IMG/VR virus record: IMGVR_UViG_3300044641_006843
Span: 1 to 26,935 of that record
Direction: 5' to 3' (one strand)
Length of the DNA stretch: 26,935 nt
Origin: a virus
Lineage: Duplodnaviria > Caudoviricetes
Below the pieces are notes generated by a model. That model did not search any database, had not been told where the DNA came from, and saw only the letters and a program-made list of their open reading frames with translations. Position 1 is the stretch's first letter, and each line of letters starts with the position of its first letter. Made by a program: the position numbers and the translations under genes. Shown here piece by piece: positions 4,843-26,935 of this stretch.

Positions 4843-5491
4843 GGTGTGCGTGGATGAGATTCTGATAGCGTTCGCCTGTGGCCATCTTGCGTGAAGCCAT
4901 AGCCCGGGAATAGCCGATGGACGTCAGGGGCTTGGTGATGGCCTTGTCATAGGTCATGAGCGATGAGCTGTGGGCATCAAATGTCTTACGCAGGCCTTGC
5001 ATGTTGGGCACCTTGGCGATGGTGCTCGGGCCTAGCGAGTACATGGCATACAGGAGCTGAGGGCTGGGCGGTGCACCGTGGTGCTTCCGAAAACTAGCCA
5101 CTACGGCACGCAGGAACGTGATTGCATACTCTCGCGCGACTAGTGGCTTGAATGCGTCGTGATAAGGGTGCACAGGCAGGCGTAGCTTGGCTCGTATGTC
5201 GCTGATGTCCATCCACGCACTCTGGTGAATCTGGAACGCACCGATGGCCGGTCCATCCGGGTGAGTCTTGTCGCCTACGGCCGTGGGCACATTGTCAGAC
5301 TCGATGAGTGCAATGGCATGAGCTAAGGCTCGCTCATCAGCATAGACGTCAATGTGCATTGGCTTGCTCTGACTCGGTTTCCGGTCGAGTGTATGGTCTA
5401 TGGCAACGCACAAACGAAAAGGGAATAAAGCAACGAAGGCCACTAACCCGATACGAGCCAAGCTAGGCGTAAGTGGAGTTGAGGCCTTCAT
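4796..5491 (-). CDS. Lysozyme-like / lytic transglycosylase (candidate endolysin) with N-terminal hydrophobic segment; start uncertain
   Basis: AIALIESD (catalytic Glu), AVGD, AIGAFQI, and late YAMYSLGP motif; N-terminal RIGLVAFVALFPFRLCVA. Confidence 0.7.
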   Translation of the reverse strand: MKASTPLTPSLARIGLVAFVALFPFRLCVAIDHTLDRKPSQSKPMHIDVYADERALAHAIALIESDNVPTAVGDKTHPDGPAIGAFQIHQSAWMDISDIRAKLRLPVHPYHDAFKPLVAREYAITFLRAVVASFRKHHGAPPSPQLLYAMYSLGPSTIAKVPNMQGLRKTFDAHSSSLMTYDKAITKPLTSIGYSRAMASRKMATGERYQNLIHAHHDSLRQLGIPLLWLD

Positions 5492-5925: not shown

Positions 5926-5953
5926 TTGACCTAGGACAAGGAGAACACATGTT
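5926..5953 (+). promoter_or_regulatory. Candidate promoter for tRNA array / early operon
   Basis: TTGACC-16 nt-CATGTT, followed by leader hairpin GTCAGCC-GATGA-GGTTGAC (5961-5979). Confidence 0.35.
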
Positions 5954-5988
5954 CGTTTGAGTCAGCCGATGAGGTTGACGTGTTCTTC

Positions 5989-6058
5989 AGCAGGCGATGC
6001 GGTTCATCAGGCGGGTTTCATAAGCCCAGCCTTCGTGGTTCGACTCCACGGCTTGCTA
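5989..6058 (+). tRNA. Non-canonical tRNA-like RNA, anticodon CAT, tRNA-Pyl-like architecture
   Basis: Acceptor AGCAGGC/GCTTGCT, no linker before D stem GATG/CATC (5-nt loop), bulged anticodon stem GC-GGGT/GCCC-A-GC, loop TTCATAA, 3-nt variable loop, T arm CGTGG-TTCGACT-CCACG. Confidence 0.75.
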
Positions 6059-6066
6059 CAATTCTA

Positions 6067-6136
6067 CGTGGGTACATTGAGCGGCAGGACTCCTACTCCC
6101 TGCCTACTGAGGTTCAAGTCCTTAGGCCCACTCCCA
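6067..6136 (+). tRNA. D-armless tRNA-like RNA, anticodon CCT
   Basis: Acceptor GTGGGT/GCCCAC, about 9 unpaired nt in place of the D arm, stem GGCA-GGA/TCC-C-TGCC, loop CTCCTAC, T arm CTGAGG-TTCAAGT-CCTTAG, ends in CCA. Confidence 0.65.
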
Positions 6137-6141
6137 CTTAA

Positions 6142-6219
6142 TGCAGGGTAGAGCAGTCCGGTTAGCTCGCCAGCTTCATACGCTGAAGGTCGTAGGTTCA
6201 AATCCTACCCCTGCACCCA
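6142..6219 (+). tRNA. tRNA-Met(CAT) on an initiator-type scaffold with altered anticodon arm
   Basis: TGCAGGG/CCCTGCA, D stem GAGC/GCTC (A11-U24), anticodon arm CCAGC-TTCATAC-GCTGA, variable AGGTC, T arm GTAGG-TTCAAAT-CCTAC, encoded CCA. Confidence 0.9.
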
Positions 6220-6222
6220 TTT

Positions 6223-6289
6223 GGGGATACTTGGAAGGCGTGACCGATTCCTAACGACACACGCACGGGTTCGATTCCCGTTATCTCCA
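6223..6289 (+). tRNA. tRNA-like RNA with alanine-type acceptor (G3-U70, A73), vestigial D arm and TTCCTAA loop
   Basis: GGGGATA/TATCTCC + A; D region only CTTGGAAG; GCGTG/CACGC stem enclosing an irregular loop containing TTCCTAA; T arm ACGGG-TTCGATT-CCCGT. Confidence 0.65.
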
Positions 6290-6407
6290 TCATCTTGGCG
6301 TCCTAACACGTGGCCTTGGCTATCATCCTCAATCACGAGGTGCCTAAACGCCCCTAGCGGGGCATCACTTTAACCCGCCCTAACGGGCACAACCACAACA
6401 CACGAAC

Positions 6408-6497: not shown

Positions 6498-6566
6498 CGA
6501 CAGCGGGCCCTTCGGGGCCACACTTTCCCACCACACACACAAACACACACACGGAGAAATACGACA

Positions 6567-7445
6567 ATCAAGACCATCAATAACATCAACTGTAACGTGG
6601 AAATCGCGTCCTTCAACAAGGGCAACACCTACAGCAACGACACTCGCAAGGGCCTGTACGACGGCATCGAGCGTGACCTCAAGGCCATCTGGAACGAGGT
6701 CGCAGGCTTCGACCTGCACAAGGGCTACTACCTCGCCTTCCGCAAGAACGAGGACGGCAGTTGGGGCGAGGACTTCGCGGCCACCATCAAGGTGGACGAA
6801 GCCTACCTCGAAAGCCACATCCGCCGTCGCAACGAACAGATTGAGAAGTGGCTGGAAATCCCGGCCCTCAAGGCTCTCAAGAAGGAAGGCGAACTGTCCC
6901 GCTATCCCACGCACACCTGCAGTATCTTCCAGATTGAGGCCAGCCATGGCTCTCGCTGGAACGAGAAGTGCAAGCTTGTCGTCGGCCCTGACTACGGATT
7001 CGACGTGTTCACGCCCAAGGCTCTGGCCGAAGAGCCGGACCTGCACCCTGTGCACAAGGCCTACAGTTACCTGCAGGACGGCAAGTACAAGCAACTCAAG
7101 ACGGACAAGCCGTATCGCCTCTTCAAGCACTACGTCCAACTGTTCTTCGAGACGCTCAAGGACGTCGAGGCCGGATACAATAAGGCCGAAGAACTCGCCA
7201 AGCCTCACGCCGACTACCTCGCCAAGCTCGAATCGTTCGAGGCCGTGTGCGAGAAGCTCAACGACAAAATCCACAGCCAGCTGAACCCGGATGCCAAGCC
7301 CGAGCACTATCGACGCACCTACGTCGAGGCACGTGAAGACCGCATCTACCTCAGCAACTGCGTACTCAACAGCGAAGAGAACATCGACGTCGCGTCTCAG
7401 ATTCTCGAACTGATTGACAAGCTCAAGTTCGCCAAGCAAAGCTAA
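6567..7445 (+). CDS. Hypothetical early protein (282-292 aa; start GTG 6597 or in-frame ATC 6567)
   Basis: Strong C/G third-position bias; frame is open upstream of the GTG. Confidence 0.85.
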   Translation: MKTINNINCNVEIASFNKGNTYSNDTRKGLYDGIERDLKAIWNEVAGFDLHKGYYLAFRKNEDGSWGEDFAATIKVDEAYLESHIRRRNEQIEKWLEIPALKALKKEGELSRYPTHTCSIFQIEASHGSRWNEKCKLVVGPDYGFDVFTPKALAEEPDLHPVHKAYSYLQDGKYKQLKTDKPYRLFKHYVQLFFETLKDVEAGYNKAEELAKPHADYLAKLESFEAVCEKLNDKIHSQLNPDAKPEHYRRTYVEAREDRIYLSNCVLNSEENIDVASQILELIDKLKFAKQS

Positions 7446-12304: not shown

Positions 12305-12376
12305 GGCCTCATCGTTCAACGGATAGGACAAGCGTTTCCTAAACGCTTAATCTAGGTTCGATTCCTAGTGGGGCCA
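12305..12376 (+). tRNA. tRNA-Arg(CCT), canonical
   Basis: GGCCTCA/TGGGGCC, D arm GTTC-AACGGATA-GGAC with A20, AGCGT-TTCCTAA-ACGCT, T arm CTAGG-TTCGATT-CCTAG, A73; CCA not encoded. Confidence 0.95.
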
Positions 12377-12400
12377 TTAACTTTCCACCCGCACACGCAC

Positions 12401-13654: not shown

Positions 13655-13932
13655 TTGATTCGAAGGACGCGACGCCGGGCCAGCTCCACCACTTCTGGTG
13701 CAAACGTACCGGCCACGGCGTAGATGACCGCCTCGTAAATGGGGGCCACCAAGCCGTGCACCGCGAAATAGCAGATGATACCGATGAGTGCACCGGCTAT
13801 GGTCCTGCGTACCCACACCAGCCAACTATGCTCTTCGTCGCTGATGAGCAGGCGAAGCAAGGCACCCATGGCACCGAGTGCGGCCATGAGCCACCCGCTG
13901 TCTTTTAGGTCATCGAGCGGGTCGGGACTCAT
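13651..13932 (-). CDS. Putative holin (93 aa)
   Basis: Three hydrophobic segments and basic C-terminus (ARRRVLRIK). Confidence 0.65.
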   Translation of the reverse strand: MSPDPLDDLKDSGWLMAALGAMGALLRLLISDEEHSWLVWVRRTIAGALIGIICYFAVHGLVAPIYEAVIYAVAGTFAPEVVELARRRVLRIK

Positions 13933-16900
13933 CGTCTCGGGTCTGCTTGGGTGTCCTGAACCAATTGTATGCGTCCTTCATGGCGGCCACCTTGGTCTGG
14001 TTGCTCTGGTCTCCGAGGGACATCAGCGTGACGCCATCGACGATTAGCTTGGCCATTTCTGAAGCGTGGCTTGCGGTCGGGAAGTTCGGCTTGATGACGA
14101 GCATCGGTCCGTTGAAAGACACGACCCTAGACATGCCAGCGGCGATTTCCTGAGAGCTGGAATTGGCATCCAGACCCATGGCATGCAACATCATAGGAAC
14201 AGGTGCGGACCATCCGATGCCTTCCGACCTGATATCGTACGGCCCAATCGCTTCTGCCTTGGAGGAACGAAGAGTCGCGAGATTCGCTTGGTCAGCGAAA
14301 TCGCTAAAAGGCTCATCAGCAACGCTGGCAGGACCGGCGAATACTTCCGAGTACCTGCCTTCATTGTAGGCTTCCTTGGTGAGGCCCTGAAGCCCGCTAC
14401 CTGCCCTTAGGTCGGTGAACTCCTTCATGCCAGCAGGGTTCCTGATGAATCCTTCCTGCTTTGCGGCGGTTGTGACTTGGTGCGAAGCACTCCTGAACGA
14501 GGATTGCATGAACGCCTCCATGACGTAGGCACCTACACGAGAGTATTGCTTCAGGAACATCGTGAGATGGGGCACGTTGCCAAGATACTTGGACGCCTGT
14601 GCCGCACGTTCTTCCGCTTCTTCCATCGTGGCAATCTTCTCAAATAGAACTTTTCCGTTAGGAGCTAGGACGACGTAGGTCTTGTCGTTGGCCATCGCGA
14701 TGGACGCTTTTTCAAACGCATCATGCGACACGGCCTCGATGGCTTTCCTCGGATTGCCAGCGTAGTAGTATTCATTGAGCCACATGGGTGCACCGTAGTT
14801 GACGGCGTATCCATGAGTCTTGTCGTAAGGCATGGCCACAAGGATGCCTTCCGGAGAAGCCGTCACCTTGGACATGCGTTTCTTCATGTCATCGGAGTCG
14901 TTGACGCCTCGGTAGGTTTCATCAAGCTTGTCCTGAGCATACCCGCCTTCTTTGAGTTCTTTGTTCTTCTTGTAGACCGATTCGATGACTGCGGTGTAAT
15001 TCCTGACCGTTTTGTCCTTGTTTTTCTCCTCTGAGAACGCATCAGGGAATTCATCGATGACCTGTTTGCCAGCGTCGATGAGCCAGCTGGATACGGACTT
15101 CTTGGTTCCTTCGATTTCCACCTCGCTGGTGAAATCTAGGTTTTCGGCCCTTACCCGGTCGATGAGCTTGTTCATCATGCCACGCTTCCTCACAAGGTCC
15201 AAAACGTAAGCGGCCTCCGGTCCGATTTTGGCCGTGTTGGAGTATCCGCTTAGCATGAAGGTTTTGCCGCCGCCTAGGTTGACACCCAAGTTGACATATC
15301 CGGACGAACTGTATCGGCTTCTGTGGTGTCGGGCGTCGGCAATGACAAGTCCCCTTTGCCTCTTTTGGAGAGCCCTCATGACGTAGAAGTTTACCATGAT
15401 GGGCCTGTAGGCGTTGTCTTCGCCGTGCGGCATGCCGTCTGGGATTACGTTAGTCACCAAGTCTCCGTCTTCGTCCAGAGTCAGGCCGGTCTTCTTGGCA
15501 ATTTCAGCCTGACGTGCCTTGAGCTTTTCGGTCTCGGAGTTCTCCTTGAAGCTTTCATGAAGCACGGCGATGGCAGGAGCCATGGATTCCATGGTCTTAC
15601 CAAGGAACGTACGTGCCCTGTGCTGGATGTATCGGGTTCCCTGAGACTCGTACAGGCCGCTGACGGAATCCATGTCGTAGTCCATGTTCTTGAACAGGGA
15701 GCCGAAATTGCTCCTGAAATTCGAAGATGCCGGGTAGTCGGATGTGTAGAAACTGTTAAACCAATCGACAGCCCTCATTTCGCCGGACTTGCCTTTGTAC
15801 ACGCCGTTGACGAAATCACGAATCATCTGTCCGGTTAGGTCGCGGTTACCAGCGGCCAGCACGTCGGTCACTTGCTCCATGTCACCGCCGGAGGCGTCCA
15901 TTAGGAAGTTGACGGTCCTAGCCATCATGGTCCTAGGGCTCATGTACTGCCTGTTTTCGAGTATGCCAGACTCACGGGCCAGACGCATGGCGTCAGCAGG
16001 CGTGGGAGCGGAAATGCTGGCACGGTTGCAGAAAGCGATGACGAAGGCCCTGAGTTCAGACTCGGACGGACCTTCGAACATGGTCTTGTGGTCTGGGAAC
16101 ATCGGGTCATCGGTAGGCAGAGGAGACTGCGAACCATGCTGGTCGGTCATGCTGATTTTCGTGTCTTGATAGGCGATGTTCTTGGCCTCTCCGGAGGACA
16201 TGTCTTCCAAAATCCGTGCCATCTTCCTCATGGCCGCGACGTCTTGGACGGTAACCATGCCACGTTCCACAAGTCCTGACGTGAACTCTTGGTTTTCCGA
16301 CAACAGCCTTACTTTTGCTGCCCAATCAGCCGCCAGCTTGTCGAAATCGATTTTGTCGAATTTAGCGATTCCTCCGGCACCATCAGCCACCTTGCACAAA
16401 TCGGAAACTTCAGCCGTGTGTGCGATGAACTCGGGAGATAGTGCCAGAAGATACTTGGCCATGCCCTGAATCCTCAGCTCCATCGAATGGCCCCCGTTAA
16501 GGAAATAACCATAGCTCATGCCTCCGAATCCGGGCATGTTTTTTTCGACTCCTAGGAAGTAAGCGTTGATTGCACCGTCGAGAAGCTGGTTAATCGGCTC
16601 GTCCACCATCCTCCGATAAAGCCTAGTAGCATTGTCCGAAAGTTCTCCGACCGGGTAAAGGTCTGGAATCTTAGCAGGCAATCCGTAGTTCTTGGTAAGG
16701 CTTTCTGGCACGGAAACGTTGCCCCTAGAAGTCCATACGCTTGGGTCGTCATCCCTAGAGATAACGAACCTGAGGAACGGACCGGAGTTCATTACATCCC
16801 TCTTGGCCATTTCCTTGTTGATGTAGGCCGTGAAGTGACGCCTGACGTACTGCCTAGCCGTGTTGCTCAGCCAAGAACGCTTCTCGTTGAGATTCATCCT

Positions 16901-19900
16901 ATTGGCAGATAACCGCTCGATGATTGCATTAATCTCCTTCTTCAATGCCGGGTTCTCTTCGATTTCCTTGAACGAAGAGTAGAGGGAAAGCCCCTCTTCC
17001 GGCCTAGCACCAAACTCCTTGCGTTGGTAGGTGTCGGATTGAAGCTCTTCGACGAAGGTGACAGGAATTTGCTTGGCGGATTCATCGCTGTTCTTTTTCA
17101 GGATGTCGTAAGCCCTGCTGACCGGACTCTGCACGGGAATGACGGAAGCGACGCTGGCATCCGTAAGCCTGAGGTGTCCAATGAGGTTGCCCAATGGAGC
17201 ACCCCTATGGGAACCGGAAGTCCTAGCGTATCCGTCGGCGATGGCCTTCTTGATTGCCATGATGTGCTTGGCCGCCTGAAGGGAGTCCAAGTATTTCTTC
17301 CTGAGCTCCGGAGGGTTTTGCCCGTCGTTGGCGTTCTGGGCAAGTGCCGCAATGTAATTCTTGAATTCCTCATCAACGGGCATGCTTTCCGTGAACAATG
17401 CCTGATAGACATGTTCGCCAAGGCCGGAAGTGTATCCGCTGTATCCGGCGTCACGATTTTTGTAAAATCCGAAATCCTTTTGGTCTTTGATGTGGGTGTC
17501 CCAATACCTTTCGGCGTTGGTCTCCCAATTCTTGAGACTGAGGTCGTATTTAGCCAGCTCGTCCACGCTGATGGTGGCCGGGTCAGGGATGTAAATTTCG
17601 ATTCCAGACAATGCGGCCAACGATTCTGCGGAAGCTTTCTTGGCGGACTCGTTGAACCCAAGCCTGTAGTACTCAAGCAGGGGTGCCGAGAATTCCATTA
17701 CCCTGTCAGGGTCGGTCGCAAGGGCCTTGAAGATTCCGCTGACGATTTCATGGGACGGCTTACCGGTAAGCCCAAGCTCCTCGACAAGCCTTACGACGGT
17801 ATCCTTGCTATAGGTCTTTTCATACGCTTCCTTGAGGCTGTTAAGATGAATGTCCTTGAGTGCCTGAAGTGCTGTCTCCATCGCAGGCCTGTTTTCATCG
17901 GAGGCCTTGGTGATTGCATGTTCGATTGCGTTAAGTTGTCCCTGCATGAGCGACAGGGTCCTGCCAGCGTAAAGCATCTTCGAGACCTGATAGTTCTCAT
18001 TGTGCGGAGACCTGATTTGCAACAGGCTCATCTGCTCGTTGAGCTTCGGCACATCGCTTTGCCACAGCTGCCTTCCCTGCCTAGGGTAGAAGACGTTGAG
18101 GTACTCCAAGATGTCTTTCTTGCTCAGGTTGTTGTCCTTGTTCGCGTAAAGGAAGTGGGCCATGCCCGTCGTACGCATCTCTCCCTTGGAAACCCTGTTA
18201 GAGGTAAGAAGGTCGAACCATTCGATGCCGGTCCTGACTTCCTTGATACGCTTGTGCTTATCCATTCCCTTGATGATGGAATTGATGAGCGTGGAGCTGA
18301 ACTGAATCGGAGAACCTCCGAGTGCGAAGTTGAGCCTAGTCCTGAGGGAGTTCTCAAGCTCTTCGACCCTATGGTCTCCGATGGACAGGGAAATCCTGTC
18401 CTGCTTTGGAGCTTCGGTGGTGATTACTTCGCCCTTCCTGATGATGTTGGAAGCCTTTCGTGCTTCTTCGGCAGTCTTGAATACCTTGGGAAGGTTGCCG
18501 ACGCCCCACACGCCATCCGCGTAGACGGGAGTGTCGGCCTGTACGACTAGGTTGAATTTGCTGGACCTCTGTACGAGGTAGGTTGCCGTGCTGGTGGCCG
18601 AAACCTCCTCAAGCTTGATGGAGTCGGGGTTTGGCGTGAGCTTGGCCACTTCCGCGTTGATTCCTCCTGCGGCAATCTTGTCCGCCAAGGCGTTGGCCTC
18701 GGATTCCGTGTCCAGATTGCGTACGATGCGTTTGACCTGCCTGCGTCCGTCCTGACCGATGGGACCGAACTCGTTCCAAGCGATGGTGTAACGCTTCTGG
18801 GCGTTCTTGAACACCGTAAGGTTGAGAGACTTGTTGGAATCCCAAGCATAGTGCTGAAGGTCTCCCCTGTCCGGGAACATCATCTCGATGATTCCTGACC
18901 TGTCGCCTGTCATGGCCAACGACCTTTCATTGTCAGGCAGGAAGTAACCGGACTCACCGGTCATGATTCGGTGGAACGCCGCGGTCATGTCGCCGTGCAT
19001 GTTCTGGTTCACGATGTTGGCAGACTTGATTGCCTCCATCATCAGGGTATCCGGTCCGACGCCTCCGCTACCGCTTCCCTTTTCCTTGCCGAGCAACTGA
19101 AGTGCCGCGTTGCCGGAGCTGGCCTTAGGCTCCTCCTTCATCATGAAGTCAACCAGCCTTGCATAGGATTCTCCCTGACCGGAGAAACGTTGGTAAATCT
19201 GTCCGAAGTTGTTTGCGGCAGTAGGGCCGTTGCCTCCCCAGACAGACCTGAGCGACCTAGACGCAGACCAAGGACTGTCGATGATTCCAGCGGAGGCATA
19301 GTTCGAGAACACGGCCGCGTTGAAGTCTTCGATTTTCGCGTCCTTCGGAAGAATGAACGTCTGGTATGCCCACTCCTGAGAAACGTCATGCATGAACTCG
19401 TCACAGCATACGAGCATGTGATAGAGGTCTTCCTTGCCGGACGGGATGTTTCCGTCGAGGAGGTTCTGCAAGGTTTCCCTAATCTTGGGAACCATTTGGC
19501 CCGGTAGAGAAGTCATTCCCGTGCCGCCTGACAGTTTGTTCTGGGTGCTACCTCCTAGGTAGATGTCGCCCGTCATCAGCTTCCTGACACCCTGAAGGTA
19601 GTCGATGATTGAAGCTTGGTCGATGGCGGCGAACTTCTTTCCTAGGGAGGAGAAGACATACTTGTTTCCAACCATGTTGGCCGGAATCGGGTTGTTGTGT
19701 GCGAAGCTGTTCAGGATAGACTTCCTGATGATGGACTGAGACACGGCGGTCTTTCCATTGGCATCCCAACCTACCGCACGAAGAAGAGGAATACCGATGG
19801 ACGGCCTCCAATTGTCGTCATGGACGGTGTCGTAGCTCGCGGCGATGTTGGTATCGGGAGAGAAGTTGACCATGATGCGTCCGTCCTCCAGACGCCTCCA

Positions 19901-22900
19901 GCTAAAGCCAATCTTTCCGTAATCCCTTCCGTGCATCATGTTGCCCATGCCGGTGGTGCCAGCCGCGGCCATCGTCTTCCACATCATGGGCCCGGCGTTC
20001 TTCATGGCGGTCTGCCTGCCTTCGGTGTTTACGATTTGGAGGAAGGACGGATTAGGAGAAGAGGATGCCGCGTAACGACCGGCAGGGAACGAAAGCTCGG
20101 TCTTGCCTAGCTGTTTCGCGATGGCGGCCAGACGGTTTGTCATCAACGACCTCTTGAAACTTTGACTGAGCACGTTTCCTAGTGCGGGAGAATTGGCCAA
20201 CGTTACTCCTCCCGTACCGATGACGTAATTTGAGGTGGTGTAGTAATCGCTTCCTCCCAAATCTTTCTGCTTGAGGACATTTCTTCCGCTTCCGGCCTCA
20301 TCTTCTCCGAAGACCATGGCATCCTCAAGAAGCCCGCGAAGGCTGACGATGGAATTCTCCATGGCTTCATGCATGCTGATTTCACGACTCGATTGCTCGA
20401 CGTAGCCTACGGGTGTGACGAAGGAGTTGATTGCGGCATCAATGCCATTGTCTCTGTCAAACGATTCCCAATTGGTCCTAGCAGAACCACGCTCATATTT
20501 GACGCCGTGAGAAGGACCAAAACTACGTTCAAGTGCGAAGGAAGCACCTTCGTACGCTTTGTTCTGGATTCCCGGAGTGTATGCAGGGTCATGCCTGAAT
20601 TTAGCAACAGGAGGAGAGTAGAACGGAAACAGGAAGCTTTGGGTGTCGTCCGTGAGCTGGATGTCATTAAGGAGCCTACGCACAGGGGTATTCTTCCTGC
20701 TTGAATAGCTTTCATGGAAGTTGGCTTTGTATCCTTTCGTACGCTTATCCTTCATCGCGGCCATGCCGGCGGCGACGCCATGCCAAAATTCATTACGTTC
20801 GTCGTGGATTGCGTTGGCGATAACTTCTCCGAGCATCGCGGCCACCTTGTTTGGCCCTAAATCGTTTAACCCCTGCAAGGCGGCATGCTGGCCCATAAGG
20901 TGGTCCATGCCGTATGCAGAGCCGAAGTTCAGGGAATCCCTGAGCGTAAACTCGACGTTATCAGGAAGCCTTTTGCCTTCTTTTTCAAACGCTACGCCGG
21001 ACATAAGACCAAGCATGGTCAGTATGCCCGAGGAGGAATGCTGAGAGGTAAGCTCGTGCACGAGGCGGTTTTTTGCCTCTGAGCCGATTCCGGCCACCCA
21101 ATCGTTGACGTATCCCTTAAACTGTTCAGGAGTGGCGTTGCCCTCTCCAATCTTCGTCTCAAGGAAGGCGAACGCATCGCTGGTGATGGCACCGAAATTG
21201 GTAAGTTCCACTAGGCCGTCTTCCGTCGCCCTTGAAAGTCCGTTCTGAAGAAGTGCAAAGAGATAGGGTGCAACAGCCGCACCGAGTGCGGAATGGCTTA
21301 GGTGAACTCCGTTTTCCACATTGAACGCGACCTTCTTGTTTTCGGAGATGGAGGCTTTTGCCATAGGACCGGTCGTGTCCGCAAAGATTGACATAATCTG
21401 CGGAAGGCTTGCCTGAATGTGATTCTGATTGTTGTCGGGTCCGCCCTCGTTCTTGAGCATGACCATGCCCATCAGGGACTGTACGGCTAGGATGTTGCCT
21501 CCGACATAGTGGGCCAAGGCGGTCTTTTCATTGGACAGACTGATAAAAGAAACCGCCTGAGGGTCGGTGAGCTTTTCAAGGTATTCTACAAACACCTTGG
21601 CACGGTCGTATCCTCCGACGGAACGCTCCATGTCCTGCTTAAACTTGGTTGGGTTTGTCAGCAATTCCTTCCACCTGAATTTCTGCGGCCTTTGCAAATT
21701 AAACAGGGAGAATCCTACATAGCTTTCAACGTTCGTGAGGGTCCTGTTGATTTTTTCGATAGCGTCTGCCGGGATGCCACGACCTTCGGACGTCATCTTG
21801 TAGGAATTAAGGCCGTCGAAGCTTACGGAGAACGGGTCAACAGAGACGATTCCCTTGCCTTCGGCCGTTACGGCACCGAAGACGCCGGTAAGCGTCTGTC
21901 CTCGCGTCATCATCAGGCCGGACGGTACGATGTACTGAAGTTCCGTGCTGAACTGAGGAGAAATCCTCTGTTCTGCCGCCGACTTGAAGATTGCATCCCT
22001 AGAACCAAGTCCGGCACGCCACACGTCCATGACCTTCATGGCAAGGGCTACCTGCGACTCGATGCTGGAGATACGCCTGCTGACGTCGCTGATGAGCGGC
22101 TGTACGAGTGCGGCCCTAGTCTCAAGAGGAAGGGCGGCAAGTTCTGCGAACGTGTACTTGCTCATGAACCCACCTAGGTCCGACTGATTCTCAAGGTAAC
22201 TGACGATGTCCGAGTCATCCTCGAAGAAGTTTTCGTCCAGCTCGTTGAGCGTGGCGATGTCATTGAGTTCACGCTTGACGGTCCCAAGCATTTCAAGGCT
22301 TTCCCTGTGGTCCTCCACGGTCTTTCCGAAGGAGTACATGATGTTATCTAGCATCTGCGAGCTTCCGGGGAGGTTCTGCTGAATCTGCCTGTAGGTTCCG
22401 GCCATCTGCTCATCGTAATGCATGAGCGAGGCTTTTGGCTCCGAGGTCGGAACATCATCAAGTCTCTCGGCTTGGAAAGCGTCGATGTTGCTTCCGTATG
22501 CACGTGTTTCGGCAACGTCCGTGGAAGCCACCGTCTGTGCGTCCTTCAGGTCATGGATGTATGCACCGAAGATTCCGGAAAGTGCCGAAGGAACGAAGCC
22601 AGAATGCCTGATAGACCTAATGCCGTGCTTTTCTCCGTAGGCGGTCGGGATTTCTGCGTTAAATCCAAGCCTCTTTTTCAGGATTGCGGAAGAGCCCTCG
22701 CCCGCACCGAAGAAAGAGCCGACGTTTTCGAACAATCCGCTGTCCAGCGTAGTAATCGGGAAATGTGCACCTGCGACAAGCTCGACAGTAGCCGCCGCCA
22801 TGTCGTCCAGAAGGAGTCCGTAAAGCCTGCGGGCAAGCTTCGGGTCTCCCTCGATGTTGGATTCAATCTTTTTGACGGCTTGCTGTACGACAGGTCCGAT

Positions 22901-25900
22901 GAGCATGGTCGCCCTGTTAATCCTGTCGTTGAGCATAACGGCGTACTCCGTTCCGACTGCCACCTTTGGCAGGTTCTTAATGAACATGCCGCTATCGACG
23001 CGTTTCCTGAACGCAGTCCAATCTTCCATGGATGCCCAGCTGGGCCTGTTCTCCATGCTGAAGCTAATCTTGGCACCGTCCCAGACATACCTTCCGAGCG
23101 TAATTTTGGAGGTCTTTTGGCTTACGGGCCGGTTGTTCCTGCCGGATACTTCATTGAACACGCCCTCAAGGTAAGAGGGGTCGTTCTTGGTAAGCCTAAG
23201 CATGTGCTCTTTGCCTAGCTTCATGCCCTTGGCGGAGGGAACCCCGCCCTTTCCGGAAACAGAGCGGGCCGTGCTGAAATTGATGTGGTTGAAGGCGAGG
23301 ATGTTCAGCAGGTCGTTCTTCGTGAAGATGTGGTCCTTCATCGCCTCGTCGATTGAGTCGAGCAGGACGGCTTTTGCGGCGTCCTCCGAGAACAGGCCAT
23401 GCTTGGAAAGCTCGGTCCTGATTTCACCGCCAAGCACCATGGCCGGGAATCGGTCGGAGTTGACGATGTCGATGACGCTATTTCCTACGGACAGGATGTC
23501 CTCGGCCTCGATGACGAATCCGGCAAGCTTGGCGAAATCCTTGATGGTATAGGTCATCGGCTGGCCGGTCTTGCCCATCTCCTTTGCGGTGGCCATGAAC
23601 GAGCCGCCCTCATAAGAAAGGTTTTCCTTTCCAAGCTGCACGGCCGCCTGAGCGGCGGCGTGGTAATCGCCCTTAACGAGGTAATGACCGCTGGTGAGGA
23701 TGAGCCTTCCGTTTTCGTCGATTTCCCATCCGCTCTGCTGGACGATGAACCTTTCGAGGTTGTCCAGCTCGGTGCTGGCCCTAGCCGCAAGGTACCTGAC
23801 CAACGCCATCTTGCCGAACATCTGTGCGGCCTTGTTGTCATCGGCCTTTTCTCCGATGCCAGCAATGGACATCAGGACCGTGGACTGACTAAGGCTTCGT
23901 CCACGCATGATGCCCTTGTTCATGGCATCGTCGATAATCTGGAGCACCGAAGTGTTCTCGGCCGCAATCCTGTCCTTCATCGCAAGCTCAAGCTGACTGA
24001 GTCCGCGGCGTTGCTGGGTCGTGAACGCTTGTCGCTCGACGGGGTCCATGACGTACTCCAGACGGGAGTAATTGGTGATGGCCTTGTGTAGCTCGGTCAT
24101 CCTTCCGAACGGAGCGGAAGTGTCTACCATGTTGGCGTAATGCGTGACCATGGCCATTGCCGCGATTGCCGCCCTGAATTCCTTGTTTTCAGCGAGGGTG
24201 GTCACATACCTAGGGCTGGCATCTCCGACCTTCTCCTTGAAAGCGTCCAGCTCCTTGTAGAGGGTATAGGCATCCGCAATGGTATCTAGGCGACCGGCCT
24301 TGTAGTGAAGGTCTCCTGCGGCCCTGTACAGTTCGTCGCTTAGGCGACCGGCGTTATGTTCTGCCGTCGCAAATTCCATCATGTTCCTCACGGCCGACCT
24401 GACGATTGGCTTCGCCGAATACTCTAAGCTGGCGATGACGGGGGGAGTGTTGGACTTGACCAGAGCGTCCACCATCCTCTGTTGCCTGATGCCATGCTTG
24501 AAGTCGAAGTATGAAGCAGGAGAGGTATCCGTGTAGTCCACACCCAAAAGTTTGGCGAAGTTTTCCTTAATAGCTTCGTTGGCTACTCCCTGAATGGCCT
24601 TTTCGTCGTCCAGCAGGTTGCCCATTTTCTGCAAAATGTGCTGTACCTCGTGGACAAACAGGCCGGTGACGTAGTTGCTACCGGAGAATTTGCTGTTGAG
24701 CGACTCGGCGTCGGCCTTGAATTTGTCAAATTCGACGGGCAAATTGAGCTCAGCGGAAGCTAGGGCACGGGCACCGATTTCAATAATGAACGTACCGTAC
24801 ATTGTGCGAATTGCCCTAGCACCATGGATGTCAACAAACCTAACCTCGACGTCTTTGAGCTGTGGGAAATACCTGTAAAGCAGGTCATGTCCGAAGACCT
24901 TTCCAAGTTTCGTGCTCCCAAGAATCTTGTCCCTGTCAATGAAGGCTGAAATGCCCGGAGTAGTCATGCGGGTTCTCACTTCGTTGGCATACGCATCGAA
25001 GGCCTTTTGCATATCAGGACTGTCGGCAAACGGAAGGAGGTGCGGAGCACCGCCGGAAGTGGTGTAATCGACGTAAGAATCCCTGTCGGAAATCTCGAAG
25101 ATTTCGGTCATGATTCCCTTGACCATGACTTTTTTGATAAGTCCGAGTTTGGTCAGCTCGTTTTTCTGGACGCTGGACAGGCCCGTGACGTCGGCCAAGG
25201 ACATGGACGGTTCAGCCTTTGACCTTTCGAAGAAGGCCTCCTGCTCCTTGTGGAACTTCCTGATTGTGTCGATGAGGGCATCAGCCCTTTTCCTTTGCTG
25301 GGGGCTGAGGCCGTGGTCGGCGTAGAATTTCCTGCCCATGACGGTGTCAAGGGCTTCGCTCATCTTGGACAAGGGGCTTCCAAGAGACCAATACTTCTGC
25401 ATCTCAAGCTCCCAGCTGGCCAATGCCTCGTCCATGAACCTGTCTGCAAGCTGTTTCTGGTATTGGCTAAGGTCGGTGGTGGTGGCCCCGGTAACGGCCC
25501 TGATTCTTTCGGACGGGTCCAATGCCTTTTCGATGCTGTGGACGGCCGTGGCCAATCCAATCAAAGCCGGGTTGGCGTTTTCAATCACTTCAGTCAACAG
25601 GAGCTCGCTGTAATTCACCCTGTCCACAGGAGAGCCTTCGGTGGCTTCGTATGCACTCCTCAGTTCCTTAAGCTTAGCATCAAGCTCGGGATTCATTGCG
25701 ATGATTGCGGCCTCAAGCATGCCAACATGGGTCATGGCTTGAACGTCCCTCTGGCTCATACGCTTCGAGTCCGGGAGCATCAAACGCCTTACCAACGCGG
25801 CATACGCATTGGAGTCGGACATCTTAAATCCATCGGCTTGGGCGTTCCTAGCGATTTCAGTACCGCCAAGGATGCTTGCGTCCATGGCGTTCCATCCCTG

Positions 25901-26935
25901 CTTCACTCCTCGGAAAGTGGCACCGATGCCTCCGTTGCCTACTAGGGTGATGTTGCCGTTGTAAAATACGATGGCTACCGGCTCCTTGATTGCCGAGTTG
26001 AGCTGGTTGAAGGTGTATTCCGCGGAGATGACTTTGGAATCATTGATGGTGTTGAACACGGACACCGTATCCGCACCGCGTAGCTCAGGGCTTACCTGCT
26101 GTACCAAGGCATGCAGGGGATTTCTGAAAAAATTAGCCATAAACGCAGACACTTTATTCTTCTTCTTAGTTTCTTCTGCTACGTTATTATCCTTAACACT
26201 TTCCTTAAAAGCGTTGAGTGCAACCAAAGCTGCGTCAATTTTCCTAGCGTCTTCGATGTTCGGGAAAGTGTATGCGTATTCCCTTCCGCCCTTGTCGCTG
26301 GCAACGTCAACCCAGTTGGATTCGTCACCGTTGAGCATTCCGTCAACGATGTTGTTAACCGCAAGAAGCCCTTCCCTGATTGTTCCGTATGACTTGTCGA
26401 AAAGCTCCCTGTTCATAGGCCTGATTGTTTCAGACAGGTTCTGGAACACGCCCTTCGCATTGCTCTCTACGGCGTACTTCTTCTTGTTGTCCAAATTGGC
26501 CTTTAGCTCAGAGCCCTTGGTAACCTCCTTGAGTAGCCTCATGCCCTCGGGTGCATCGACGAGCACGTTCTTCATGTACTCCTTGTCAGACCTTACGAGA
26601 GTGCGGCCCTTGCCGATTTCTTCTGACCTCTTCTGCCTGTACTTCTCGGGGTCCCTGTGTTTGGACATCAGGGCTTCGGCTTGACGCTTGTATCCGTCGA
26701 TTGAATCGACGTCTTTTACGATGTTAAGGGTCTCGAAATGATAGGCCAGATTGGAGCCATAAGGGCTGAATGCGGCACTCTGGGTCTCAATGGTGGACTC
26801 CATGGCGTGCATCAGCATCTTGAGCCGTCCTTCTTCCGTCTTGGCCACACGCTCGATGTAGTTCGTGTCGATGAACAGGCCGATGTTTCCGGTGCGACCG
26901 GAACGCTGTACCGTGAAGTACCTGCCGGTATGCTT
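13910..26935 (-). CDS. Giant polyvalent-type (probably virion/ejected) protein, at least 4,341 aa, 5' end outside window
   Basis: Frame stays open upstream of the track's GTG to the window edge (KHTGRYFTVQRSGR...); FEISD (25085-25099) plus HEVQH zincin motif (24638-24652); FVEELQSD (17033-17056). Confidence 0.85.
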   Translation of the reverse strand, partial: KHTGRYFTVQRSGRTGNIGLFIDTNYIERVAKTEEGRLKMLMHAMESTIETQSAAFSPYGSNLAYHFETLNIVKDVDSIDGYKRQAEALMSKHRDPEKYRQKRSEEIGKGRTLVRSDKEYMKNVLVDAPEGMRLLKEVTKGSELKANLDNKKKYAVESNAKGVFQNLSETIRPMNRELFDKSYGTIREGLLAVNNIVDGMLNGDESNWVDVASDKGGREYAYTFPNIEDARKIDAALVALNAFKESVKDNNVAEETKKKNKVSAFMANFFRNPLHALVQQVSPELRGADTVSVFNTINDSKVISAEYTFNQLNSAIKEPVAIVFYNGNITLVGNGGIGATFRGVKQGWNAMDASILGGTEIARNAQADGFKMSDSNAYAALVRRLMLPDSKRMSQRDVQAMTHVGMLEAAIIAMNPELDAKLKELRSAYEATEGSPVDRVNYSELLLTEVIENANPALIGLATAVHSIEKALDPSERIRAVTGATTTDLSQYQKQLADRFMDEALASWELEMQKYWSLGSPLSKMSEALDTVMGRKFYADHGLSPQQRKRADALIDTIRKFHKEQEAFFERSKAEPSMSLADVTGLSSVQKNELTKLGLIKKVMVKGIMTEIFEISDRDSYVDYTTSGGAPHLLPFADSPDMQKAFDAYANEVRTRMTTPGISAFIDRDKILGSTKLGKVFGHDLLYRYFPQLKDVEVRFVDIHGARAIRTMYGTFIIEIGARALASAELNLPVEFDKFKADAESLNSKFSGSNYVTGLFVHEVQHILQKMGNLLDDEKAIQGVANEAIKENFAKLLGVDYTDTSPASYFDFKHGIRQQRMVDALVKSNTPPVIASLEYSAKPIVRSAVRNMMEFATAEHNAGRLSDELYRAAGDLHYKAGRLDTIADAYTLYKELDAFKEKVGDASPRYVTTLAENKEFRAAIAAMAMVTHYANMVDTSAPFGRMTELHKAITNYSRLEYVMDPVERQAFTTQQRRGLSQLELAMKDRIAAENTSVLQIIDDAMNKGIMRGRSLSQSTVLMSIAGIGEKADDNKAAQMFGKMALVRYLAARASTELDNLERFIVQQSGWEIDENGRLILTSGHYLVKGDYHAAAQAAVQLGKENLSYEGGSFMATAKEMGKTGQPMTYTIKDFAKLAGFVIEAEDILSVGNSVIDIVNSDRFPAMVLGGEIRTELSKHGLFSEDAAKAVLLDSIDEAMKDHIFTKNDLLNILAFNHINFSTARSVSGKGGVPSAKGMKLGKEHMLRLTKNDPSYLEGVFNEVSGRNNRPVSQKTSKITLGRYVWDGAKISFSMENRPSWASMEDWTAFRKRVDSGMFIKNLPKVAVGTEYAVMLNDRINRATMLIGPVVQQAVKKIESNIEGDPKLARRLYGLLLDDMAAATVELVAGAHFPITTLDSGLFENVGSFFGAGEGSSAILKKRLGFNAEIPTAYGEKHGIRSIRHSGFVPSALSGIFGAYIHDLKDAQTVASTDVAETRAYGSNIDAFQAERLDDVPTSEPKASLMHYDEQMAGTYRQIQQNLPGSSQMLDNIMYSFGKTVEDHRESLEMLGTVKRELNDIATLNELDENFFEDDSDIVSYLENQSDLGGFMSKYTFAELAALPLETRAALVQPLISDVSRRISSIESQVALAMKVMDVWRAGLGSRDAIFKSAAEQRISPQFSTELQYIVPSGLMMTRGQTLTGVFGAVTAEGKGIVSVDPFSVSFDGLNSYKMTSEGRGIPADAIEKINRTLTNVESYVGFSLFNLQRPQKFRWKELLTNPTKFKQDMERSVGGYDRAKVFVEYLEKLTDPQAVSFISLSNEKTALAHYVGGNILAVQSLMGMVMLKNEGGPDNNQNHIQASLPQIMSIFADTTGPMAKASISENKKVAFNVENGVHLSHSALGAAVAPYLFALLQNGLSRATEDGLVELTNFGAITSDAFAFLETKIGEGNATPEQFKGYVNDWVAGIGSEAKNRLVHELTSQHSSSGILTMLGLMSGVAFEKEGKRLPDNVEFTLRDSLNFGSAYGMDHLMGQHAALQGLNDLGPNKVAAMLGEVIANAIHDERNEFWHGVAAGMAAMKDKRTKGYKANFHESYSSRKNTPVRRLLNDIQLTDDTQSFLFPFYSPPVAKFRHDPAYTPGIQNKAYEGASFALERSFGPSHGVKYERGSARTNWESFDRDNGIDAAINSFVTPVGYVEQSSREISMHEAMENSIVSLRGLLEDAMVFGEDEAGSGRNVLKQKDLGGSDYYTTSNYVIGTGGVTLANSPALGNVLSQSFKRSLMTNRLAAIAKQLGKTELSFPAGRYAASSSPNPSFLQIVNTEGRQTAMKNAGPMMWKTMAAAGTTGMGNMMHGRDYGKIGFSWRRLEDGRIMVNFSPDTNIAASYDTVHDDNWRPSIGIPLLRAVGWDANGKTAVSQSIIRKSILNSFAHNNPIPANMVGNKYVFSSLGKKFAAIDQASIIDYLQGVRKLMTGDIYLGGSTQNKLSGGTGMTSLPGQMVPKIRETLQNLLDGNIPSGKEDLYHMLVCCDEFMHDVSQEWAYQTFILPKDAKIEDFNAAVFSNYASAGIIDSPWSASRSLRSVWGGNGPTAANNFGQIYQRFSGQGESYARLVDFMMKEEPKASSGNAALQLLGKEKGSGSGGVGPDTLMMEAIKSANIVNQNMHGDMTAAFHRIMTGESGYFLPDNERSLAMTGDRSGIIEMMFPDRGDLQHYAWDSNKSLNLTVFKNAQKRYTIAWNEFGPIGQDGRRQVKRIVRNLDTESEANALADKIAAGGINAEVAKLTPNPDSIKLEEVSATSTATYLVQRSSKFNLVVQADTPVYADGVWGVGNLPKVFKTAEEARKASNIIRKGEVITTEAPKQDRISLSIGDHRVEELENSLRTRLNFALGGSPIQFSSTLINSIIKGMDKHKRIKEVRTGIEWFDLLTSNRVSKGEMRTTGMAHFLYANKDNNLSKKDILEYLNVFYPRQGRQLWQSDVPKLNEQMSLLQIRSPHNENYQVSKMLYAGRTLSLMQGQLNAIEHAITKASDENRPAMETALQALKDIHLNSLKEAYEKTYSKDTVVRLVEELGLTGKPSHEIVSGIFKALATDPDRVMEFSAPLLEYYRLGFNESAKKASAESLAALSGIEIYIPDPATISVDELAKYDLSLKNWETNAERYWDTHIKDQKDFGFYKNRDAGYSGYTSGLGEHVYQALFTESMPVDEEFKNYIAALAQNANDGQNPPELRKKYLDSLQAAKHIMAIKKAIADGYARTSGSHRGAPLGNLIGHLRLTDASVASVIPVQSPVSRAYDILKKNSDESAKQIPVTFVEELQSDTYQRKEFGARPEEGLSLYSSFKEIEENPALKKEINAIIERLSANRMNLNEKRSWLSNTARQYVRRHFTAYINKEMAKRDVMNSGPFLRFVISRDDDPSVWTSRGNVSVPESLTKNYGLPAKIPDLYPVGELSDNATRLYRRMVDEPINQLLDGAINAYFLGVEKNMPGFGGMSYGYFLNGGHSMELRIQGMAKYLLALSPEFIAHTAEVSDLCKVADGAGGIAKFDKIDFDKLAADWAAKVRLLSENQEFTSGLVERGMVTVQDVAAMRKMARILEDMSSGEAKNIAYQDTKISMTDQHGSQSPLPTDDPMFPDHKTMFEGPSESELRAFVIAFCNRASISAPTPADAMRLARESGILENRQYMSPRTMMARTVNFLMDASGGDMEQVTDVLAAGNRDLTGQMIRDFVNGVYKGKSGEMRAVDWFNSFYTSDYPASSNFRSNFGSLFKNMDYDMDSVSGLYESQGTRYIQHRARTFLGKTMESMAPAIAVLHESFKENSETEKLKARQAEIAKKTGLTLDEDGDLVTNVIPDGMPHGEDNAYRPIMVNFYVMRALQKRQRGLVIADARHHRSRYSSSGYVNLGVNLGGGKTFMLSGYSNTAKIGPEAAYVLDLVRKRGMMNKLIDRVRAENLDFTSEVEIEGTKKSVSSWLIDAGKQVIDEFPDAFSEEKNKDKTVRNYTAVIESVYKKNKELKEGGYAQDKLDETYRGVNDSDDMKKRMSKVTASPEGILVAMPYDKTHGYAVNYGAPMWLNEYYYAGNPRKAIEAVSHDAFEKASIAMANDKTYVVLAPNGKVLFEKIATMEEAEERAAQASKYLGNVPHLTMFLKQYSRVGAYVMEAFMQSSFRSASHQVTTAAKQEGFIRNPAGMKEFTDLRAGSGLQGLTKEAYNEGRYSEVFAGPASVADEPFSDFADQANLATLRSSKAEAIGPYDIRSEGIGWSAPVPMMLHAMGLDANSSSQEIAAGMSRVVSFNGPMLVIKPNFPTASHASEMAKLIVDGVTLMSLGDQSNQTKVAAMKDAYNWFRTPKQTRDDESRPAR

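Follow-up and report, generated by a model that had tools for sequence, protein, structure and literature searches.

The window, by which we mean the whole 26,935 nt stretch of DNA analysed here, belongs to a virus record that is 56% complete and carries genes for a terminase, RusA, exonuclease VIII, a replication-initiator protein and ERF. The stretch occurs mostly in lake and freshwater metagenomes, no RNA data set being listed among its sources, and the analysis also covered two near-complete relatives, 46.5 and 48.8 kb in length. On the plus strand, a compact tRNA with the anticodon CAU that we named RNA1 (5989..6061) lies at the start of a cassette of small RNA genes. A candidate promoter for the cassette at 5926..5953 (+; TTGACC, 16 nt, CATGTT) is suggested by conservation in relatives, because TTGAC and a CATG-like hexamer recur at the corresponding place in L007, L010, L011 and L046; a scan with the promoter consensus returned no site, 5926..5953 falling below its threshold. 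The promoter is followed by a leader (5961..5991, +) with a computed hairpin (5961-5979) and a GTTCTT run, an arrangement that we take to resemble the boxB-boxA antitermination sites of rrn operons. The leader shows 0, 0 and 1 differences in 30 nt across three strains, and a boxA-like pattern matched six of nine cassette starts, the window's own not being among them.

RNA1 is followed by RNA2 (6068..6135, +), a D-armless tRNA-like RNA whose anticodon loop varies between near-identical strains, the anticodons CCU, CAU and CAC occurring among the window, L001 and L008. In two of three strains, four of the ten positions of this loop are changed, compared with no difference in RNA3 and RNA4, and RNA2 looks like a decoy under diversifying selection. 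The three anticodons are those found on the other tRNA genes of the lineage. RNA3 (6142..6219, +), called by ARAGORN and Rfam and compared with host-type initiators, has the canonical shape of an initiator-type tRNA-Met(CAU), but its anticodon stem-loop is altered (C31:G39, U32 and C38 versus G31:C39, C32 and A38 in the host type). RNA4 (6223..6292, +) is a tmRNA-like stub of ~70 nt lacking a D stem and a message part. Its Rfam tmRNA score of 32.7 bits lies below the 47-bit cut-off, and since ordinary tRNAs score as high (up to 36.8 bits), we base the name on conservation, on the absence of a D stem and on G3.U70 and A73, RNA4 being kept with CCA in L010 (3477-3546) and L011 (3565-3635), two distant relatives. 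A TLD-only RNA of phage DS6A that is similar to RNA4 is described as an inhibitor of tmRNA (PMC4131195, PMC11915505).

Downstream of the cassette lies a conserved non-coding element with two hairpins (6297..6360, +), which in L005 (3894-4060) and the sequence run X8 is preceded by a further structured insert of ~170-180 nt. At 6561-6597, the first protein gene after the cassette lacks the ATG of its homologues; by eye, GGAG precedes an in-frame ACG at 6561, which G001 also has. Relatives whose terminase is 75-90% identical carry other sets in the cassette region, namely an odd RNA with two tRNA-Ala genes, a deviant tRNA-Ala with two tRNA-Phe genes, three tRNA-Val genes, or one ordinary CAU tRNA, and the content of the cassette slot turns over quickly among close relatives. 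Other irregular tRNA- or tmRNA-like RNAs were noticed in the cassettes of relatives (L134, ~5168-5241; L049, 4839-4915) and in the L206 tRNA array (~1580-1720).

We infer a verrucomicrobial host. RNA3 is up to 87% identical to the initiators of a sample of 41 Verrucomicrobiota genomes, with which it shares the unusual U1:A72 and C73, and at most 83% identical to those of a sample of 26 Pseudomonadota genomes; three of seven genome contigs with a related terminase are titled Verrucomicrobiota and may be misbinned. No host defence gene was identified. Away from the cassette, an ordinary tRNA-Arg(CCU), called by ARAGORN and Rfam and having an anticodon that is also seen in RNA2, is located at 12305..12377 (+) and could gate late translation. 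In G001, AGG accounts for none of 87 Arg codons in eight genes near the cassette and replication region and for 216 of 489 in eight structural genes, including 177 of the 310 in a giant protein (13910-26935, minus strand; 27576-44696 in G001) that has 5,706 aa in G001 and is ~50% identical in G002. AGG is not recoded, because 22 of 24 AGG codons align with Arg in G002. The part of the giant protein in the window matched no Pfam or PHROG family, and neither its 2,999-aa part nor the SLT protein had a match among the phage sequences searched.

RNA1 (5989-6058) folds into a 7 bp acceptor stem, a 4 bp D stem attached without a connector (0 nt) and closed by a 5-nt D loop, an AG linker (2 nt), an anticodon stem of 6 bp plus one unpaired A on the 3′ side around the 7-nt loop UU-CAU-AA, a 3-nt variable loop (CUU), a 5 bp T stem with the T loop UUCGACU, and the discriminator A6058. 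Energy minimisation yields this layout (-31 kcal/mol, z -3.5), none of 200 shuffled sequences was equally stable, and the computed pairing probability is 0.89-1.0 for every pair. The initial annotation had read the absent connector, the 5-nt D loop, the long anticodon stem with a single 3′ bulge, the 3-nt variable loop and the CAT anticodon from the letters alone, and the fold computation gave the same features. It had also named a standard cloverleaf or a recent deletion from an ordinary tRNA-Met as what would overturn its reading, which is not what we found: the best canonical cloverleaf with a 2-nt connector pairs only one of three D-stem positions. A seventh anticodon pair, G22:C43, is possible (-28.4 versus -25.1 kcal/mol without it) and would leave a variable loop of 2 nt; the homologues favour the reading with 6 bp and 3 nt over that with 7 bp and 2 nt. 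RNA1 was missed by both ARAGORN and Rfam, whose only calls are the tRNAs that begin at 6142 and 12305 and, weakly, a tmRNA at 6223. The 3′ end reads A-CAA in the window and A-CCA in the sister strains L001, L002 and L008, and position 6060 is C in both further sequence runs that cover the site, out of four runs in the set.

The nearest homologues come from L010 and L011, two phages in which the downstream protein is 45-47% identical and an RNA sits at the same place as RNA1. Both RNAs have the layout 7/1/4/5/2/6/3, that is, a 1-nt connector and again a 5-nt D loop, and the anticodon CAC. With a model built from these two sequences alone, RNA1 was the top non-training match at 44.2 bits, the next unrelated match among 79 sources reaching 33.5 bits. 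In a four-sequence alignment, 97.7% of the cells are paired and 12 of 22 pairs show two-sided change, compared with at most 53.5% and at most three pairs in slid controls. Because the model guided this alignment and its four rows include a near-identical pair, the evidence is strong but not independent. An alignment of eight sequences, also model-fitted, gave 97.1% and 16 of 22 pairs. The syntenic homologues keep the RNA1 fold via compensatory changes. Across three strains RNA1 shows 0, 0 and 1 differences in 70 nt, versus 15-20 in 465 nt of the upstream gene, as measured on four sequence runs and three loci. RNA1 is a real, conserved, shrunken tRNA gene.

The L010 and L011 RNAs are not plain methionine initiators, because of the CAC anticodon and, in L011, the pair G1:C72; both carry the valine determinants A35, C36 and A73. 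By eye, their 3′ halves resemble the 3′ half of a tRNA-Glu at L210:458-526 (-), and they may be mosaics. In searches for further copies, one pattern scan gave six loci (four known, two by chance) and another 15 (four known, 11 read as unrelated), blastn with the cassette and with RNA1 revealed nothing closely similar in cultured phages, and the model R2 detected no new member in 65 related phage records, among which the RNA1 gene is therefore confined to the closest lineage.

Several features connect RNA1 with initiator tRNAs. Its acceptor best matches host-type initiators (9 of 14 positions; 7 for the next isotype), and its anticodon is CAU. The purine11:pyrimidine24 pair, numbered with the first D-stem base as 10, is A:U in 4/4 and purine:pyrimidine in 8/8 aligned sequences. 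Two other marks are ambiguous. In place of a 1:72 mismatch RNA1 has an A1:U72 pair, although 9 of the 12 host-type initiators compared also pair there, as U1:A72. Bacterial initiators have three G:C pairs at 29-31; RNA1 has G:C at 28, 29 and 30 but U.G at 31, and the host-type initiators have only two. MetRS is described as reading mainly CAU, R11:Y24 and 1:72 as formyltransferase elements and A1:U72 as a context-dependent antideterminant for E. coli MetRS (PMC9976931).

With the models built here, the compact CAU fold with initiator marks was recovered from prophages and tRNA arrays of Verrucomicrobiota and Actinomycetota. The top match in a phylum sample of 151 genomes, L148, is a prophage RNA that has an A x A mismatch at 1:72 and a connector of 1 nt, and in which a 6-bp anticodon stem carries an initiator loop. 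Three of six matches in 151 genomes of one order are compact CAU RNAs (L206, L208 and L211), and a third model, R3, found such RNAs in five of 37 genomes of one family and in two of 151 Actinomycetota, whereas a sample of 151 Pseudomonadota genomes gave none at E<=1e-11, only 32 candidates being scored in each genome. Two of the genome searches drew on largely the same genomes and are not independent. Members are located in the portal-protease and scaffold-capsid gene gaps, in an integrase-bearing prophage and in tRNA arrays. We tabulated 13 compact members (12 distinct sequences), leaving out the ordinary tRNAs L207, L209 and L210 (the last a misaligned tRNA-Glu), the ordinary CAU tRNAs L149, L150 and L152-L155, and L151 with its near-canonical D arm and CCU anticodon; L219 and L220 were found later and stand outside this set. 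CAU is present in 11/13 and an encoded CCA in 11/13, 1:72 is weak or mismatched in 12/13 (A x A in L148, L217 and L218), G30:C40 occurs in 13/13 and G29:C41 in 12/13, initiator marks that are partly selected by the search, as the models hold CAU and GG in their consensus. An RNA annotated as tRNA-Met in the cultured phage Mwe-JY26 scored 64.7 bits and combines an initiator acceptor and loop with the AG linker, the bulge position and the CUU variable loop of RNA1. L206, L215 and Mwe-JY26 carry the compact RNA in a tRNA array that is otherwise ordinary, and no other Met gene was seen in these stretches.

Two further RNAs deserve mention here. L151:1501-1574 (-) is a prophage RNA between terminase and portal genes with an initiator acceptor (C x A mismatch), the anticodon CCU and its own promoter-like site. 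Pseudomonas phage Ep020 (L220, ~369-450) has an unannotated CAU RNA with A1:U72, the RNA1 anticodon loop and a long D loop, which ARAGORN mis-calls.

The initial annotation had likened RNA1 to tRNA-Pyl, which is characterised by a CUA anticodon, an anticodon stem of 6 bp and a variable arm of 3 nt together with G73 and G1:C72; in the tRNA-Pyl of Methanomethylophilus alvus the connector is absent, the D loop has 4 nt and a 3′ A is left unpaired (as described in PMC7609411). The proposed architecture stood as far as shape is concerned: RNA1 has the 6-bp anticodon stem and 3-nt variable loop (with the 7-bp/2-nt alternative possible in the window copy), and its connector of 0 nt and D loop of 5 nt lie within the tRNA-Pyl ranges of 0-1 and 3-5 nt. 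Family identity did not follow. The anticodon is CAU in RNA1, CAC in L010 and L011 and CUA in none of the 13 compact members, the universal identity elements G73 and G1:C72 are replaced by A73 and A1:U72, and the same fold occurs in initiator-derived phage tRNAs. As the initial annotation stated, no PylRS is visible in the window, and a wider search found pylS (TIGR02367) in none of five records, two of them at least 90% complete.

The resemblance to M. alvus tRNA-Pyl that the initial annotation had pointed out was borne out by the sequences printed in a preprint (bioRxiv 10.1101/2025.08.31.673356), to which RNA1 was compared by eye, our computed alignments and trees containing no tRNA-Pyl. 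RNA1 is identical to M. alvus tRNA-Pyl in 43 of 68 columns, M. alvus itself having been picked as the best look-alike, and to that of 1R26 in 44 of 68. These figures exceed the computed phage-tRNA background of 36.6 +/- 2.7 matching columns (122 tRNA calls, two of which reached at least 43) and, together with the missing connector and the bulge common to both RNAs, they would fit a descent of RNA1 from a Methanomassiliicoccales-type tRNA-Pyl re-coded to CAU, or from a common ancestor, as would L206, whose D stem and CAG variable loop are as in several tRNA-Pyl of that type. In the core between the acceptor strands, RNA1 matches M. alvus at 38 of 53 positions by eye, compared with a maximum of 35 for 142 ordinary tRNAs (some rows mis-trimmed) and 32 and 31 for L010 and L011. 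The acceptor, however, matches M. alvus at 5 of 14 positions and the initiator-type members at 9-10 of 14, L011 reaches only 35 of 68 columns, and RNA1 shares 49, 45 and 45 positions with L148, L217 and L219, respectively, equalling or exceeding the M. alvus figure. The bulge, too, recurs in L219, and the identity elements and pylS are missing. From these matches and the features of the Mwe-JY26 RNA it follows that M. alvus-like traits arise in initiator-derived tRNAs, and we regard descent from tRNA-Pyl as very improbable. Most likely, RNA1 resembles tRNA-Pyl without being of that family and is an initiator-tRNA derivative that converged on the geometry of tRNA-Pyl and mitochondrial tRNA-Ser(UCN). 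Its short connector is probably offset by the sixth anticodon pair, so that the L shape is maintained, which would explain the convergence.

What such a derivative might do is suggested by its surroundings, as the D-armless RNA2, the altered initiator RNA3 and the tmRNA-like stub RNA4 beside RNA1 point to counter-defence. We propose, with confidence that is evenly balanced, that RNA1 is an initiator-derived tRNA charged with methionine by the host, serving as a stand-in start tRNA that tRNA-cutting or -modifying defences would fail to recognise. The cassette would be transcribed early in infection from the promoter at 5926-5953, and RNase P and 3′ trimming would cut out RNA1, for which the intact 7+5 acceptor/T helix speaks. 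Host MetRS would then charge it via CAU, and formylation and P-site entry could proceed via the weak 1:72 pair, purine11:pyrimidine24 and G29:C41/G30:C40. Escape would result from rebuilding the core and the edge of the anticodon loop (U31.G39, U32) and leaving in place the ends that MetRS, formyltransferase and the ribosome recognise. Translation already accepts this geometry in tRNA-Pyl and mitochondrial tRNA-Ser(UCN), and phage tRNAs are reported to defeat tRNA-targeting defences (PMC11555353, PMC12409363). Against a stand-in initiator, A1:U72 is a true pair, 31:39 is U.G instead of G:C, and phages are described as having generally avoided encoding tRNA-fMet where VapC targets tRNA-fMet (PMC10264068). 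The phage already has RNA3, a normal-shaped initiator variant that may do the job, the CAC homologues in L010 and L011 would have to do something else, and the RNA1 core appears nearer to M. alvus tRNA-Pyl than to any of the 142 ordinary tRNAs.

If RNA3 already supplies a working initiator, this would also suit a non-translating decoy, in which the initiator-like ends of RNA1 soak up nucleases or transferases that attack tRNA-fMet and the real tRNA is spared. RNA2, with its missing D arm and variable loop, and RNA4, a tmRNA stub whose DS6A form inhibits tmRNA, look like decoys themselves, and irregular tRNAs that are charged but untranslated are described in PMC5389517. Little would be gained, however, by rebuilding the core away from the target shape; RNA1 is near-invariant where RNA2 varies, and the array stretches of L206, L215 and Mwe-JY26 show no Met gene besides the compact RNA. 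We consider a decoy possible though unlikely. The true A1:U72 pair and the intact 12-bp acceptor/T helix would equally befit a working elongator, for Met here and for Val in L010 and L011, that adds decoding capacity and has no part in initiation. The valine determinants of the CAC homologues fit this reading, as does a relative in which three ordinary tRNA-Val genes lie close to the same promoter landmark. We find it improbable given that 1:72 is weak or mismatched in 12/13 members, that purine11:pyrimidine24 occurs in 8/8 aligned sequences and that GUG, with 147 of the 624 Val codons counted in 16 G001 genes, is not the principal Val codon.

The CAU anticodon and A73 are also compatible with a tRNA-Ile2 that reads AUA after conversion of C34 to lysidine, and the relatives L060, L063, L064 and L069 carry an ordinary CAU tRNA that we presume to be of the Ile2 type. 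Among the 10,574 codons of 16 G001 genes, however, AUA occurs 14 times, and the acceptor and the family marks of RNA1 are initiator-like, which leaves this assignment extremely unlikely. Least credible of all is a decaying tRNA-Met pseudogene. It would explain why ARAGORN and Rfam miss RNA1 and why the window copy ends in CAA, but all 22 of 22 pairs form, compensatory change is extensive, strain variation is near zero and the sister strains encode CCA.

RNA1 is most likely a new structural variant of phage-encoded initiator-type tRNA and not a tRNA-Pyl. No description of compact initiator-type phage tRNAs was found in the literature searched at title and abstract level; supplements such as phage tRNA tables could hold them. 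A review gives the compact geometry only for tRNA-Pyl and mitochondrial tRNA-Ser(UCN), to which the compact phage and prophage tRNAs would add a third, apparently independent set from at least two bacterial phyla that was missed here by ARAGORN and Rfam. Such a set would mean that the compact core is tolerated by the synthetases and ribosomes of bacteria, would offer phages a route to protect translation initiation by rebuilding the core and keeping the ends, and would provide natural sequences for asking why tRNA-Pyl is shaped as it is. The close analogue in the cultured phage Mwe-JY26 makes this testable, and the D-armless RNA2, whose anticodon loop can be exchanged, gives a further sign of a tRNA arms race that lends itself to testing. 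It is also conceivable, though we rate it as very doubtful, that the pool of compact initiator-type phage tRNAs shares ancestry with tRNA-Pyl, whose core would have arisen in or passed through mobile counter-defence tRNAs. If true, RNA1 with its M. alvus-like stem and bulge and L206, which has the D stem and CAG loop of delta-N tRNA-Pyl, would represent surviving intermediates and provide natural scaffolds on which to expand the genetic code.

Among known systems, the best geometric match is the type I mitochondrial tRNA-Ser(UCN), which shares with RNA1 the short connector, the small D loop, the long anticodon stem, the 3-nt variable loop, G18G19 and T-psi-C. RNA1 differs in being a phage gene for a bacterial host with Met or Val anticodons in its lineage, and a sign of descent is absent. 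The tRNA-Pyl of M. alvus (delta-N class) is likewise connector-less, with a small D loop containing GG, a UUCGA T loop, a 6-bp anticodon stem broken by one 3′ A and a 3-nt variable loop; RNA1 departs from it in CAU instead of CUA, A73 instead of G73, A1:U72 instead of G1:C72, a 5-nt D loop, a 2-nt linker, a variable loop other than CAG and its location in a phage without pylS. Bacterial tRNA-fMet of the Verrucomicrobiota type (U1:A72) has CAU, a similar acceptor, a weak 1:72, purine11:pyrimidine24 and G:C at 29:41 and 30:40 in common with RNA1, which is set apart by the shrunken D arm, the lost connector, the sixth anticodon pair, the bulge, U31.G39 and the short variable loop. The RNA4 stub parallels the TLD-only tmRNA of DS6A as it is described. 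The cassette as a whole recalls the irregular tRNA polycistrons and allo-tRNAs of Mukai et al. (PMC5389517), which are also irregular tRNA clusters on mobile DNA; RNA1 itself has an acceptor/T arrangement of 7/5 instead of the 8/4 or 9/3 of allo-tRNAs described there and lacks their long variable arm. In function, the closest parallels may be the T5 tRNA-Tyr acting against retron Eco7 and the T5 tRNA-Lys, -Thr and -Asn acting against PARIS, phage tRNA variants with their own promoter that keep translation going; as described, the T5 cases involve tRNA variants and overexpression, whereas in RNA1 the whole core is rebuilt and the role is putative.
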